Shown here piece after piece: positions 6,690 to 59,511 of a stretch of 64,000 nt of DNA. The translations under genes were made by a program, and so were the position numbers. The DNA comes from a virus (taxonomy: Duplodnaviria > Heunggongvirae > Uroviricota > Caudoviricetes). The notes beneath the pieces were generated by a model. That model saw nothing but the letters and a program-made list of their open reading frames with translations. It had not been told where the DNA came from and did not search any database. The stretch covers positions 56,333 to 120,332 of the IMG/VR virus record IMGVR_UViG_3300028260_000001; one strand, written 5' to 3'. Each line of letters begins with the position of its first letter. The first letter of the stretch is position 1.

Positions 6690-7097
6690 TTATACACCGT
6701 TATTCAATTTAGCGATTTTGAGTACGCGTGAGTCTTGGAATTGTACCATCCAACCCACGGTAAATGTTTTGCTGTCAGTAACGACGTACCCGGTGAAGTT
6801 GATCGTGTATTGTGAAGGTTTTTCTGCATCCTCCACAACTGTCACGTTGGCATATGAATCAGCATTGAACGCTGCTTTTAGTTTGGCATCGAGTTCATCT
6901 TGCAACTTTGTTTCCAGATCCAACATGCGGTTAGCATAGATCTTCAACAGGTATTGCAAAGTGATGTTTTGATCACGGTGTGTTACCGTCATCGAATGAT
7001 TCGATTCCATAAAGCAGGCGATAATGTAGTCAGCCTTATCTTCGGGATGGTCGATCCAACCTTTCAATCCCATCGTCGGGATATATTTTTCAGCCAT
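6690..7097 (-). CDS. Conserved hypothetical protein
   Basis: 135 aa ORF in operon context. Confidence 0.6.
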   Translation of the reverse strand: MAEKYIPTMGLKGWIDHPEDKADYIIACFMESNHSMTVTHRDQNITLQYLLKIYANRMLDLETKLQDELDAKLKAAFNADSYANVTVVEDAEKPSQYTINFTGYVVTDSKTFTVGWMVQFQDSRVLKIAKLNNGV

Positions 7098-7156
7098 TGG
7101 GTTACCCTATTCTCTCGTTGAGTCATAGAGTAAGCCGAAAGAAAAAATAAACGCTA

Positions 7157-7172
7157 GGGGGCCGAAGCCCCC
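7157..7172 (-). terminator. Intrinsic terminator
   Basis: GGGGGC-TTCG-GCCCCC hairpin followed by a T-rich tract on the minus strand. Confidence 0.7.
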
Positions 7173-7178
7173 ATGGTT

Positions 7179-7586
7179 TTACTTCAGACGCAGAGCCTTT
7201 TCAACAGGCAGCTCTGCCAACACACGGATCCAATCTTTGATTGGAGAGCCGAAGGTAACTTGCACAGACTGGCTGAGTTTGACGCTCTCGCCTTCTGCTG
7301 CATCGTTACCATCATTGGTGATCGATACGAGACGATCACCTTCGAATTCGAGGGTAAAGGTGTGACGACCGGAAGTATGCTTCATACCGGCGGCCAGAGG
7401 ATTCACCAGGTTCTTGAATGCAGCAGGTGGGACGAAACGGATTTCGTATTGCTTGCCTTCGAAGTAGATATCGTAATGACCAGTTTCGGTGTTGTAGACC
7501 AGAGCAAACGATTCATTTTCTTCGAATACACGGATGCCACGTTTCTTTGCAGTTGGGGTTGGTACAGTGCCAGTTGGTGCAATCAT
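7179..7586 (-). CDS. Hypothetical protein
   Basis: 135 aa with AGGAA RBS. Confidence 0.6.
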   Translation of the reverse strand: MIAPTGTVPTPTAKKRGIRVFEENESFALVYNTETGHYDIYFEGKQYEIRFVPPAAFKNLVNPLAAGMKHTSGRHTFTLEFEGDRLVSITNDGNDAAEGESVKLSQSVQVTFGSPIKDWIRVLAELPVEKALRLK

Positions 7587-56235: not shown

Positions 56236-58080
56236 ATGAACGTATATGAATGGATGGGCGCAACTGAGAGCGAACCACCACTACATGAAGATGATTCCCG
56301 AGAAGACCCAACCCATCGTCCCCAAGTTCCTCACGAAGATGACGATAACAGACAGCACCATGGCGACAGTTCGCCAGCCGGTGGTGGTCGAGTACAATCT
56401 GAAACCGAACACCAAACAGATCGTGTCATCCAAGACCCAGAGATGCTAGAAGACCTGACTGCATCTAACGAATCGATCATTGAAGACATTCGTAAGTTCT
56501 TCAAGATGCACAACCGCGGTAGTAAGTTCGAAGAGATGGATGGTAATGCTCGCGCAGGCGCAGCTAAGATCCTTAAATCCATCGGTGATACTTTCGCTAA
56601 TAAGCAGTGGTTGGATAAGCAAACTCCGATCACGCACAAAATCAAAGTAGGTGATCTGACCGATCGACTGAACCTGGATCAGATGGCTGCCACGATCAAA
56701 GAAACCTATGCGATTAATGCTTCGTTCCAGAATGCCATGCAAACAGCACAACAACAAGTGTTGAAGCAAATGCTCCCAGTTATGAAACAGTGGGGAGCTG
56801 ACAAGATTACCGATAAGGTGTATGAAGCTACTAAGGCAATGCTGAAGGAAGTTAAACCTCTCAGCGAAGTCATTAAGAAGCCAACTCGCCTAAAGACCAA
56901 TCTGCTGCCAGGCGAAGCTACTGCTGAAGGGCGTGATCCCATGACTCCAGAAGAAGTTCTGGAAGTAGCGACAATCATCCTGAACTCGATGAAGGAAGAC
57001 TCTCAGCAAATCGAAACGAACTCTGAATGGATCTATGGCGAACTGGAAGGTTTCCTGGATGCAGAGTATGAAATCGAACGTAATGATGGCCACTCAGAAT
57101 CCTACAACCTAGAAGCGTGGATGGATCTTTGTGCAGCTGTCTACCGTAAGATCTCCATTGATACTGTTCCAGAGATGATGGCGGCATTCCGTCAATTCGA
57201 AGGCGCATGCGTTGCAGCGGTTATCTACATGGAACGTTCTTTCAAAGGTGGTAAGGGTGTAGCTGTAGAAGACTTCACCATCGCTAACGAAGGTTTCCTG
57301 GATGCCATCAAGAGCCTGTTTAAACAGAAACCTAAAGACGTAGAAGTCAAAGGTCTGGATAACAACGTGATCAAGCAACTCGAAGACACCCTGTTAAATG
57401 ACAACTGGCTTAAAGAACAGACGCTGACTACCGGTACTGTTGAAGTTCGTTTCCCAGATGCAGCTCAGGATGGTAACTACAAACCACTAGTAGGTCGTAT
57501 CCAGCAAGAACTGGACAAGGCGGCTAAGATCAATGCGGCAGCGTCCAATAAATGGCTTAACTACATCAAGGTTGGTGTGGATCTTATTATCTCTGGTAAC
57601 CTAAAGAATGCCAACCTAGAACAAGTTCAGAAGCTAAACGAATTCATTGTCTATGATGATATTGATTTCGGTCGACAGGACATCGAGCCCGATAACATTA
57701 CTGAAGATGACGCTGAAGTTGAATTGCCAGCTCTTGATGAGAAAGGAATCAAAGAGGCAACGAAGACAATCATCCAGTTGATTGAAATGCGTAATCAATA
57801 CGGTAGGAAATCATTCGGTAATGTGCCTACTTACGTTCCTAGCAAGCGTAAAGAAATGATCGAGAACCTGGAGGATGATGATCTACGTGAAGCCTTAACG
57901 ACGTTGTGTTCAGAAGTAGACGACATCCTGGGGTATTTCGTAGAGGGCTTCTACCAACATCAGTATAACTACTTCTACATGGTAGAAGGGTTAGCTAAAC
58001 CACTGATGCATTGGATCCAGAAATCGATCACTGGTATCAAGTACGGTAATGAGGCATTTGCTGATGTGGGAAAGCGTTAA
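56236..58080 (+). CDS. Internal head/ejection-type virion protein with an acidic propeptide and repeated modules
   Basis: 614 aa from MNVYEW (AAGGA RBS); acidic N-terminus; SNE, ANE and GNE match the phiKZ prohead protease S/A/G-X-E cleavage consensus; two full homologous modules. Confidence 0.7.
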   Translation: MNVYEWMGATESEPPLHEDDSREDPTHRPQVPHEDDDNRQHHGDSSPAGGGRVQSETEHQTDRVIQDPEMLEDLTASNESIIEDIRKFFKMHNRGSKFEEMDGNARAGAAKILKSIGDTFANKQWLDKQTPITHKIKVGDLTDRLNLDQMAATIKETYAINASFQNAMQTAQQQVLKQMLPVMKQWGADKITDKVYEATKAMLKEVKPLSEVIKKPTRLKTNLLPGEATAEGRDPMTPEEVLEVATIILNSMKEDSQQIETNSEWIYGELEGFLDAEYEIERNDGHSESYNLEAWMDLCAAVYRKISIDTVPEMMAAFRQFEGACVAAVIYMERSFKGGKGVAVEDFTIANEGFLDAIKSLFKQKPKDVEVKGLDNNVIKQLEDTLLNDNWLKEQTLTTGTVEVRFPDAAQDGNYKPLVGRIQQELDKAAKINAAASNKWLNYIKVGVDLIISGNLKNANLEQVQKLNEFIVYDDIDFGRQDIEPDNITEDDAEVELPALDEKGIKEATKTIIQLIEMRNQYGRKSFGNVPTYVPSKRKEMIENLEDDDLREALTTLCSEVDDILGYFVEGFYQHQYNYFYMVEGLAKPLMHWIQKSITGIKYGNEAFADVGKR

Positions 58081-58130
58081 GTGGTCTCTTCCGTGCAAAG
58101 GAAACTGATCCTACTGTCGTAGGTGACCAC
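58068..58130 (+). other. Candidate programmed -1 ribosomal frameshift signal
   Basis: In-frame slippery heptamer G GGA AAG (58068-58074), 6-nt spacer, then stem GTGGTC/GACCAC enclosing TTCC/GGAA and CCTAC/GTAGG hairpins. Confidence 0.65.
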
Positions 58131-58811
58131 AACTATCAGAAAGCAAAGCGGTTGGTAGAGCAAACGTTCTTTAACGATTCGTGGTTATCACAGCAAACCT
58201 TTACTGGTAAACCTGTGAAGGTATCGTTCCCTGGTAACTTAACGAAGTTCGATAACTCAATCATCGATACGATTCGTCGTGATGCTCAGCCCCATTCCAA
58301 GAAGGCAGGTGAATACCTCAAAGAAGGCTTCAAACCAGTCAATGAAGTTATCCATTACCTTTACCAGCACGGATGGGAACAAGATCCAGACAAAGCAAAA
58401 GAGTTCTTGAAGACAGTTGACTTCAAAGTTCATCTGAACCCAGAACACATTCAGATCGCTAAGCCCAACGAAGAACACGAACTCCCTGCTCTAGATGAGA
58501 AGTCTATTAAGGCAGTGGCTAAGACGTTCTTAGATCTGGTGGAACTGAAGCGTGAACTGTGGGATGTTCACCTGATGCGAATCTGGAAGACGTTTGGTGT
58601 AGAGGGTTCTCATTACGGTAAAGGTGGTAAGCGTTATCGCGATGCTGAAGCAACCAATGCACCACCTGAAGTTTACAAGCTGTTCCAGAAGCTGCACAAG
58701 TATGGAGAGGACTTTGAAGCATGTCTTTACAAGTTCAATTCTTCTTACACGGAAATCACTGTCCCAACAGCTGATGGGTTACTACGGTGGATGTCACGTT
58801 CGATCGCTTAG
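58074..58811 (+). CDS. Third module of the head protein, in the -1 frame (frameshift extension)
   Basis: The -1 frame is open from 58065. It reads (K)ALSGLFRAKETDP...LVEQTFFNDSWLSQQ and is homologous to modules 1 and 2; no clear RBS or ATG of its own. Confidence 0.7.
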   Translation, partial: ALSGLFRAKETDPTVVGDHNYQKAKRLVEQTFFNDSWLSQQTFTGKPVKVSFPGNLTKFDNSIIDTIRRDAQPHSKKAGEYLKEGFKPVNEVIHYLYQHGWEQDPDKAKEFLKTVDFKVHLNPEHIQIAKPNEEHELPALDEKSIKAVAKTFLDLVELKRELWDVHLMRIWKTFGVEGSHYGKGGKRYRDAEATNAPPEVYKLFQKLHKYGEDFEACLYKFNSSYTEITVPTADGLLRWMSRSIA

Positions 58812-58936
58812 GAATAAAATACTTGGCGGGAGATAGTATAGTTGAGGACCTGCGTGCCTCAACACCACCCAGTCACTCGCCGGAGCATCCTACGGAGCGC
58901 TTCTAGAAGAGATCCTTCTGTGATTGTCACTTGTAA

Positions 58937-58966
58937 GGGCTATCCTTCGGGATGGCCTTTATGCCG
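58937..58966 (+). terminator. Terminator with TTTATGCCG tail
   Basis: GGCTATCC-TTCG-GGATGGCC-TTTATGCCG. Confidence 0.75.
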
Positions 58967-58995
58967 CAATCGTATGTTACAGAAGGAGAACCACA

Positions 58996-59511
58996 ATGAG
59001 TTCATTTACCCGCTTTACCGCTGCAAACCACTTAACCCTGGATGACAACGCTAGCAACATCTTAGGGAAGAACTATTACCGTGTCACTGAAGGCTTCCGT
59101 TATTACATCGGACATGAGAACTCAGACAAGTATGTCGACGTCCCTACCGGCTTTCTAACTGACGGTGCTTCCGTTCCATTCTTCCTACAGTGGTTGATTC
59201 CACCCCTGGGCGAATATTCCCAAGCGTGTACCTTACACGACTGGTTGTGTGAACATTATGAAATTACGCAAGTAGTTAATGGTGTGCCTACCCAGGTGAA
59301 GATCGACCGTGAAGAAATTGATCGTATTCTTTACGAAGCCATGCGTGTTTTGAATGTTGCTGCTTGGAGACGGAACATTATCCAAGTTGGCGTAGACGCG
59401 TACCGATTCGTCACCCGGCCTACTAAACCAAAAGTTGACCCAAGAAAGACGGAGCTCGAACGTGGAACGAATTATTCGCTTGGCCCTGCGACCGCTTTAC
59501 CAGCCGGTTAA
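58996..59511 (+). CDS. DUF1353-family protein
   Basis: VPTGFLTDGASVP and ACTLHDWL motifs, then IDREEIDRILYEAM; AAGGAG RBS. Confidence 0.85.
   Translation: MSSFTRFTAANHLTLDDNASNILGKNYYRVTEGFRYYIGHENSDKYVDVPTGFLTDGASVPFFLQWLIPPLGEYSQACTLHDWLCEHYEITQVVNGVPTQVKIDREEIDRILYEAMRVLNVAAWRRNIIQVGVDAYRFVTRPTKPKVDPRKTELERGTNYSLGPATALPAG

Follow-up and report, generated by a model that had tools for sequence, protein, structure and literature searches.

RESULTS

The polyprotein locus and its two reading frames

This study concerns a head polyprotein gene similar to that of phiKZ gp303, which lies in a 64,000-nucleotide stretch of viral DNA (positions 56,333 to 120,332 of the IMG/VR virus record IMGVR_UViG_3300028260_000001; the whole stretch is referred to here as the window). 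The window is part of a 305-kb virus record with terminal repeats, and all features of the locus are on its plus strand. An earlier annotation of the window, here called the original prediction, had proposed that an apparent programmed -1 ribosomal frameshift near the end of this gene adds a third module to the protein.

The gene is preceded by genes encoding the alpha and beta subunits of ribonucleotide reductase (RNR). Its 0-frame open reading frame (ORF) spans positions 56236 to 58080 (614 codons plus the stop, in agreement with the database gene call of 614 aa), and an AAGGA Shine-Dalgarno sequence lies approximately 7 nt 5' of the ATG at 56236. The ORF encodes an acidic propeptide, two modules, and an eight-residue tail, AFADVGKR. 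A first S-N-E motif (56464 to 56472), a putative prohead-protease site at which cleavage is predicted, aligns with VSNE/G of phiKZ gp303 (a slash marks the module boundary). Module 1 (56473 to 57291) follows this motif and ends with the second motif, A-N-E (57283 to 57291); module 2 (57292 to 58053) ends with the third, G-N-E (58045 to 58053). Motifs of this kind (SNE, ANE, or GNE) are present at every module boundary in all relatives.

The C terminus of the ORF reads ...KYGNE AFADVGKR and is followed by TAA (58078 to 58080). Inspection of the codons across this region (GTG GGA AAG CGT TAA) revealed a slippery heptamer, G GGA AAG (58068 to 58074), in the X XXY YYZ phase, located five codons 3' of the G-N-E motif and separated from the stop by one codon. 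The -1 frame is closed by a TGA (58062 to 58064) until 3 nt 5' of the heptamer and is then open from 58065 onward to a TAG at 58809 to 58811, while the 0 frame closes 3 nt 3' of the heptamer. The two frames thus overlap by 13 nt that contain the heptamer alone, and therefore any frame change must fall inside those 13 nt. Read after a -1 slip, the continuation (58074 to 58811; 245 codons plus TAG) would encode module 3, and the predicted transframe product, ...GNEAFADVGK-ALSGLFRAK...SIA*, would be 858 aa long with the junction peptide ..ANVGKALSGLFR. Two further elements flank the heptamer. A GAGG, a possible Shine-Dalgarno-like upstream stimulator, lies 13 nt 5' of it (58051 to 58054), and a predicted stimulatory hairpin (58081 to 58130) begins 6 nt 3' of it.

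Codon reading confirmed the end of the ORF and the phase of the heptamer as originally described. The sizes given for the two products (614 and 858 aa) and for the three modules (approximately 273, 254, and 252 aa) were also correct, as were the positions of the GAGG, the outer stem, and the inner hairpins.

A genome-wide scan of the 305 kb identified 58068 to 58074 as the sole candidate of the GGGAAAG type, and the other -1 sites that it returned had poor heptamers only. One further candidate, a T TTA AAG heptamer close to an ORF end and followed by a long open -1 frame (genome positions 188659 to 189354, minus strand, outside the window), was rejected as a second frameshift site; it belongs to an ordinary ATGA-overlapping gene pair in which the second gene has its own AAGGA Shine-Dalgarno sequence.

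Similarity of the encoded protein to phiKZ gp303

Pfam contained no family for either ORF. In PHROGs, the 0-frame ORF matched phrog_24656, a "virion structural protein" (E = 1.6e-15), and neither ORF hit a tail-chaperone family in PHROGs or Pfam. Module 1 matched the C-terminal half of phiKZ gp303 with 22% identity over approximately 300 aa (304 columns; pairwise E = 1e-10; tblastn E = 2e-4). gp303 is annotated as "structural head protein," contains the internal VSNE/G, and has the C terminus ..MGNENY*; a neighborhood with a tRNA cluster is common to its gene and to the polyprotein gene. It is reported to undergo proteolytic processing, to enter the head, and to be nonessential (bioRxiv 10.1101/2025.11.23.690004), and cleavages have been mapped to it and the S/A/G-X-E motif confirmed (PMC10449902). 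A homologue of the phiKZ head protease was found in the window's genome with gp175 as the query (60% identity; E = 1e-100). The view that the gene is the positional and sequence counterpart of phiKZ gp303, and by homology encodes a processed head protein, is therefore well supported, and the assignment to the head in the original prediction is supported by the similarity to gp303 together with the gp175-type protease in the same genome. By the same comparison, the gp175-type protease would cleave at the module boundaries, and the products would be located in the head.

An AlphaFold model of module 3 (predicted local distance difference test score, 79; predicted template modeling score, 0.75) consisted mainly of helices and had two short strands; the junction region, residues 1 to 19 of the model, was disordered. 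Foldseek comparison of the model with the PDB returned generic helical bundles only (best E = 0.18). In BFVD, the named significant matches (E up to 1e-3) were all jumbo-phage proteins, several of them named virion structural proteins; among them were several paralogues from Noxifer and the Psa21 orthologue, whose BFVD/UniProt name is "virion structural protein." Just beyond the cutoff came a protein of PhiPA3 (E = 1.1e-3), and the match to a virion protein of 201phi2-1 was weaker still (E = 6.5e-2).

Relationship of module 3 to module 2

The original prediction had aligned the product of the slip with module 2, and this alignment held. Module 3 matched module 2 with 31% identity over 170 aa (E = 6e-17), and the alignment begins at the first -1 codon, where ALSGLFRAK of module 3 aligns with AIKSLFKQK of module 2. 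The similarity runs across the junction itself: the 0-frame NE/AFADVGK joined to the -1-frame ALSGLFRAK matches NE/GFLDAIK-SLFKQK of module 2, and it also matches SNE/DFSDLGEKLGGFFR of the relative L011. Two relatives, L005 and L011, lack module 2, and their module 1 runs directly into module 3 without a frame break (...SNE/DFSDLGEKLGGFFRHRPK). The corresponding stretch has one additional base in these two genomes, and the slippery heptamer is absent from it. Modules 2 and 3 were found in one frame in no genome, whether among the relatives, in a metagenome scan, or in an exhaustive search of representatives.

Conservation of the site among relatives

Six assemblies had the frameshift-type arrangement. 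Besides the window, these were Pseudomonas phage D6, a cultured phage with P. syringae pv. tomato DC3000 as its host (OQ363659; L001:6707), the IMG/VR genomes L004 (L004:4004), L006 (L006:6848), and L008 (L008:7604), and a JGI contig, L012 (L012:5161). The same frame break and TGGGAAAGC were invariant in all six. The 0-frame stop stood at the same position, one codon past the heptamer, in each of them (TAA in five and TGA in L008), and GTGGTY...GAYCAC was found 6 nt 3' of the heptamer in every case. The family is tiny: the exhaustive search gave 6 hits among 1.84 billion representatives, and the metagenome scan gave one more locus.

Pairwise synonymous divergence (dS) of module 3 was saturated (at least 1.8) in all pairs but L004/L012 (dS, 0.2), and the assemblies therefore represent approximately five independent lineages. 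The codons of the heptamer were identical in these five lineages, against a background identity of just 14 to 17% for codons of conserved residues. From the heptamer to the 3' arm of the stem, 8 of the 15 conserved-residue codons were identical at the nucleotide level, compared with the same background (p of approximately 4e-4 to 1e-3). The recurrence of heptamer, frame break, and stem in five genomes besides the window is beyond chance. The upstream element, which falls within the N-E-x codons, reads GAAGG in D6 and GAGG in the other five genomes; it is constrained by coding, its role as a stimulator is doubtful, and we give it little weight.

Frame switch and selection on module 3

The position of the frame change was examined in an ungapped alignment of the window, D6, L004, L006, and L008. 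Upstream of the heptamer, the variable columns were distributed 23/19/39 over the three codon positions of the 0 frame. In the 140 nt 3' of the heptamer, ahead of any candidate start, the distribution over the codon positions of the -1 frame was 16/13/38. The heptamer is therefore the exact point at which third-position variation passes from the 0 frame into the -1 frame.

The same five genomes (L012 was left out) had no conserved start position and no Shine-Dalgarno sequence for the -1-frame ORF, and the first ATG, GTG, or TTG in that frame was located at +84, +117, +102, +147, and +87. In contrast, a truly independent overlapping gene elsewhere in the genome has both an AAGGA and an ATGA overlap.

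Module 3 is under strong purifying selection. The ratio of nonsynonymous divergence (dN) to dS was approximately 0.03 to 0.09; between the window and D6, dN was 0.11 and dS was 1.85. The dN of module 3 was below that of module 2. Given selection of this strength, module 3 must be expressed.

Predicted RNA structure downstream of the heptamer

The minimum free energy (MFE) fold of positions 58075 to 58140 was a long irregular hairpin (-19.0 kcal/mol; z = -2.4). Its outer stem, GUGGUC(UCUU)/(AGGU)GACCAC, is conserved, and its interior is variable. The original prediction had described a three-way junction starting 6 nt downstream of the heptamer, in which GTGGTC (58081 to 58086) pairs with GACCAC (58125 to 58130) and encloses TTCC/GGAA (58089/58100) and CCTAC/GTAGG (58110/58119) hairpins. 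The outer stem of this description stands, being common to both folds and conserved in the six genomes. The junction itself was rejected as the main fold: it is a suboptimal structure (-17.1 kcal/mol, 1.9 kcal/mol above the MFE), and its inner hairpins are not conserved, with GGAA absent in L004 and L012 and CCTAC/GTAGG broken in L006.

When the five frameshift genomes other than L012 were folded, free energies ranged from -17.8 to -25.7 kcal/mol and z-scores from -1.7 to -3.9. The interiors of the hairpins paired differently among these genomes, and the same outer helix formed 6 nt 3' of the heptamer; 93% of cells in this 10-pair helix were paired. The in-frame relatives folded weakly (L005, -14.2 kcal/mol and z = -1.1; L011, z = +0.8). 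The hairpin had no match in Rfam. On these data, the structure is conserved, and a role as a stimulatory hairpin is plausible.

Module content of the relatives

Relatives differ in the modules that they carry. Psa21 and L013 have modules 1 and 2 only, and their ORFs end at the protease-type motif (..NSNE* in Psa21; one residue earlier, ..YDN*, in L013). RVTF4 (L010:4001-5758) has a different second module. An extra module of approximately 270 aa (SNE/GIWDKF... or SIE/GIFDKI...) is inserted between modules 1 and 2 in D6 (L001:4047-6719), L008 (L008:4926-7616), and L012 (L012:2501-5173). Taken with the in-frame fusions of L005 and L011, the sequence comparison portrays the polyprotein gene as a shuffling cassette of protease-delimited modules.

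In a maximum-likelihood module tree rooted by module 2, module 3 divided at its base into two branches (supports, 90/83 and 86/78), each of which contained frameshift-type genomes, and the in-frame pair L005/L011 was sister to L004/L012. The simplest history suggested by this tree would be an old frameshift that was lost once, along with module 2; support is moderate, and recombination is the alternative.

Several other features of the locus and its relatives were noted. L013 (a Logan contig) encodes a stand-alone 259-aa protein (L013:1203-1982) directly 5' of its polyprotein; this protein starts MNTISNE/SMFALIKQLW and resembles one module on its own, preceded by a very short propeptide. The synteny of L013 also differs in that no RNR genes lie upstream. 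Two large proteins, P0010 (1524 aa) and P0011 (1632 aa), match a segment of 25 to 40 residues of module 3 (query residues 77 to 115, KPVNEVIHYLYQHGW...), with nine matched stretches in P0010 and five in P0011. The segment may be a repeated motif common to an unrelated large protein.

A conserved structured noncoding element of approximately 100 nt (58812 to 58910 in the window) lies 3' of the polyprotein stop, whichever module is last. It was present in all eight genomes compared (the window, L001:7454-7555, L003:5257-5358, L013:3805-3906, L010:5756-5857, L004:4760-4861, L005:4751-4852, and L011:4260-4361), with a mean column identity of 78%. RNAalifold predicted three hairpins in it, with compensatory changes in 5 of 20 pairs, and a search of Rfam gave no match. 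Possible roles are those of a conserved 3' untranslated region or terminator and of a phage promoter or leader that serves the next gene; the element could also be a small RNA. That next gene (58924 to 59511) encodes a DUF1353 protein to which PHROGs assigns the label "tail assembly chaperone" (phrog_1158; E = 7e-42). It is kept 3' of the polyprotein gene in most relatives and has no similarity to phiKZ gp302.

DISCUSSION

Proposed mechanism

The original proposal of a programmed -1 frameshift that adds a third, paralogous module is supported by the heptamer, which is invariant in six genomes, by the change of coding frame at that point, by the absence of any conserved start, and by the in-frame fusions of relatives. 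We consider it very likely that -1 programmed ribosomal frameshifting on G GGA AAG yields two forms of the polyprotein, of 614 and 858 aa. From this arrangement we infer the ribosomal mechanism, the role of the hairpin, and the release of modules by proteolysis, as follows. The majority of ribosomes would translate the propeptide, module 1, and module 2 and would stop at the TAA at 58078 to give the 614-aa form. A fraction would slip by -1 on the heptamer, with re-pairing of tRNA-Gly in the P site (GGA to GGG) and of tRNA-Lys in the A site (AAG to AAA). Ribosomes probably pause at the hairpin 6 nt downstream, and the adjacent stop may contribute. The slipped ribosomes would then read module 3 in the -1 frame and produce the 858-aa form. 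The slip site lies five codons past a G-N-E motif of the gp175-type cleavage kind, and so both products, once cut there, would give identical mature modules 1 and 2, the short form shedding an octapeptide only. Since the long form alone carries module 3, this module would be made at a fixed fraction of the other two.

Alternative explanations

Module 3 might instead be a separate gene, translated from an internal TTG or GTG start (e.g., 58152 or 58215) or by termination and reinitiation after the TAA at 58078, in which case the heptamer would be coincidental. Gene callers and the GenBank record of D6 annotate an ORF of its own (D6 coding sequence 6854 to 7456; the 220-aa P0008), and the close overlap of the stop with the -1 ORF resembles that of coupled genes. 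In the five genomes examined, however, neither a positionally conserved start nor a Shine-Dalgarno sequence was present, and TTG 58152, which the original prediction had named as a possible start for module 3, is not conserved, being CTC in D6. Moreover, the 28 to 49 codons that precede the candidate starts show the variation expected of coding sequence in the -1 frame, the residues that they encode are conserved, and they are homologous to the N terminus of module 2 and to the in-frame fusions of L005 and L011. The codons of the heptamer have also stayed invariant despite saturated synonymous sites. We therefore regard a separate gene as improbable.

An origin at the RNA level, in which some transcripts gain one base through stuttering of the RNA polymerase of the phage or the host at GGGAAAG, would yield an identical protein, since an extra A or G in the mRNA gives the same transframe sequence. 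Known transcriptional slippage sites are homopolymer runs of approximately 6 to 9 or more, but the site here has G3 and A3 only, and stuttering is therefore unlikely. The heptamer is moreover a textbook tandem-slippage sequence in the correct phase, and a hairpin at the 6-nt ribosomal spacing would have no role in such a process. phiKZ-like phages do use their own unusual RNA polymerases (PMC6544186), but on balance we rate polymerase stuttering as very improbable, even below a separate gene. Least probable of all is that the break is an artifact of sequencing or assembly, or else an inactivating deletion that became fixed, with module 3 truly in frame (GGGAAAAG or GGGGAAAG at the site) or a decaying remnant. 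The in-frame relatives differ by exactly one base in a 16-nt stretch, and the window's record is metagenome derived, but six assemblies from different projects, an isolate genome included, break at the same base. An assembly error is very unlikely because the same break is found in all of them, cultured D6 among them. Purifying selection on module 3 has been strong since these lineages diverged (dN/dS of approximately 0.03 to 0.09 with dS of at least 1.8), so that the module is expressed, and the frameshift is found in both of the basal branches of the module 3 tree.

Several observations weigh against programmed frameshifting or against parts of the mechanism proposed for it. The number of independent lineages is just five or so, in a tiny family. 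Covariation of the stem, which the original prediction had proposed to look for among homologues, was not seen: changes in the outer helix are one-sided and wobble compatible (C to U opposite G), with no two-sided compensatory changes. Both arms of the stem fall in conserved codons (S-G-L-F and G-D-H-N), and part of the pairing could follow from coding. In-frame L005 retains a weaker version of the stem, and the z-scores of the folds are modest in the window (-2.4) and in D6 (-1.7). The transframe product is a prediction from sequence. In addition, the relatives L005 and L011, with the arrangement [1][3], make module 3 at 1:1 with module 1, and therefore a substoichiometric amount is no universal need of module 3, and the benefit of tuning it down is unclear.

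Implications for head protein stoichiometry

If programmed frameshifting operates as proposed, a conserved -1 frameshift just past a prohead-protease site would determine how many copies of one internal head module, released by the protease, are made relative to those of its paralogues, in a manner reminiscent of Gag-Pol. The recoding site would be gained or lost as modules are shuffled and would have been lost on deletion of module 2 in L005 and L011. We lean slightly toward this broader interpretation. Full-text literature searches found no report of frameshifting in virion proteins of phiKZ-like phages or chimalliviruses. The D6 paper does not mention a frameshift and contains the term mass spectrometry just once, among its references, and no D6 proteomics was found in the literature; the GenBank record of D6 annotates two separate hypothetical proteins at the locus.

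The proposed recoding would correct the annotation of D6 and of several uncultured relatives, in which two "hypothetical proteins" would become one recoded gene, and would add the processed internal head proteins of chimalliviruses to the kinds of genes known to use -1 frameshifting. It would also offer a handle on how jumbo phages set the amounts of their many paralogous head-packed proteins. Among the relatives, the frameshifted, in-frame, and absent states together form a natural experiment, albeit a small one, in the evolution of a recoding site during the shuffling of domains.

Comparison with known systems

The G/GT tail assembly chaperone gene of lambda, which is reportedly expressed through a -1 frameshift, has the identical heptamer in the same phase. 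In both systems a slip near the end of the upstream ORF gives, or is predicted to give, a minor C-terminally extended form in a fixed ratio, and both genes are late virion-assembly genes. The gene described here, however, follows RNR genes and encodes a homologue of a processed head protein, whereas the lambda gene is flanked by those for the tail tube and the tape measure, and its product is a tail chaperone. Frameshifting in lambda, at an efficiency of a few percent with the same heptamer, does not depend on any downstream structure, whereas a conserved hairpin is present here; and the extension here is a whole paralogous module behind a protease site. Membership in the G/GT pair of tail assembly chaperones was considered and rejected, as the gene is in the wrong place, gave no hit to a tail-chaperone family, and has the heptamer alone in common with them.

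phiKZ gp303 resembles the polyprotein in its genomic neighborhood, its VSNE/G boundary, and a GNE located two residues from the C terminus, and both phages have the gp175-type protease. It differs in being a single 646-aa ORF with an unrelated N-terminal half, no frameshift, and neither module 2 nor module 3.

The features of frameshifting in retroviral Gag-Pol, Escherichia coli dnaX (tau/gamma), IS3/IS911, and T7 gene 10A/10B can be set against those of the site described here. dnaX and IS3/IS911 likewise have a heptamer of the X XXA AAG type, which uses the weak pairing of tRNA-Lys with AAG, and a stem-loop approximately 6 nt downstream. In dnaX, a Shine-Dalgarno-like element precedes the heptamer, whereas the GAGG here is constrained by coding and 13 nt away, and the slip in dnaX shortens the product. 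In T7, too, a phage head protein is extended by a -1 slip, but 10B carries a short tail on the major capsid protein and no separate module released by a protease.

By analogy, the closest functional logic would be that of Gag-Pol. There, two polyproteins of different length are made from a single mRNA, their ratio being fixed by a heptamer and a downstream RNA structure, and a viral protease frees the parts in the assembling particle. Gag-Pol belongs to RNA viruses of eukaryotes and its extension consists of enzymes, whereas the polyprotein described here belongs to a double-stranded DNA phage of bacteria, its extension is a paralogue of the preceding structural module, and its processing is predicted by homology. 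The proposed mechanism itself is classical, as known from lambda G/GT, dnaX, and IS3, and the class of gene would be new for it.

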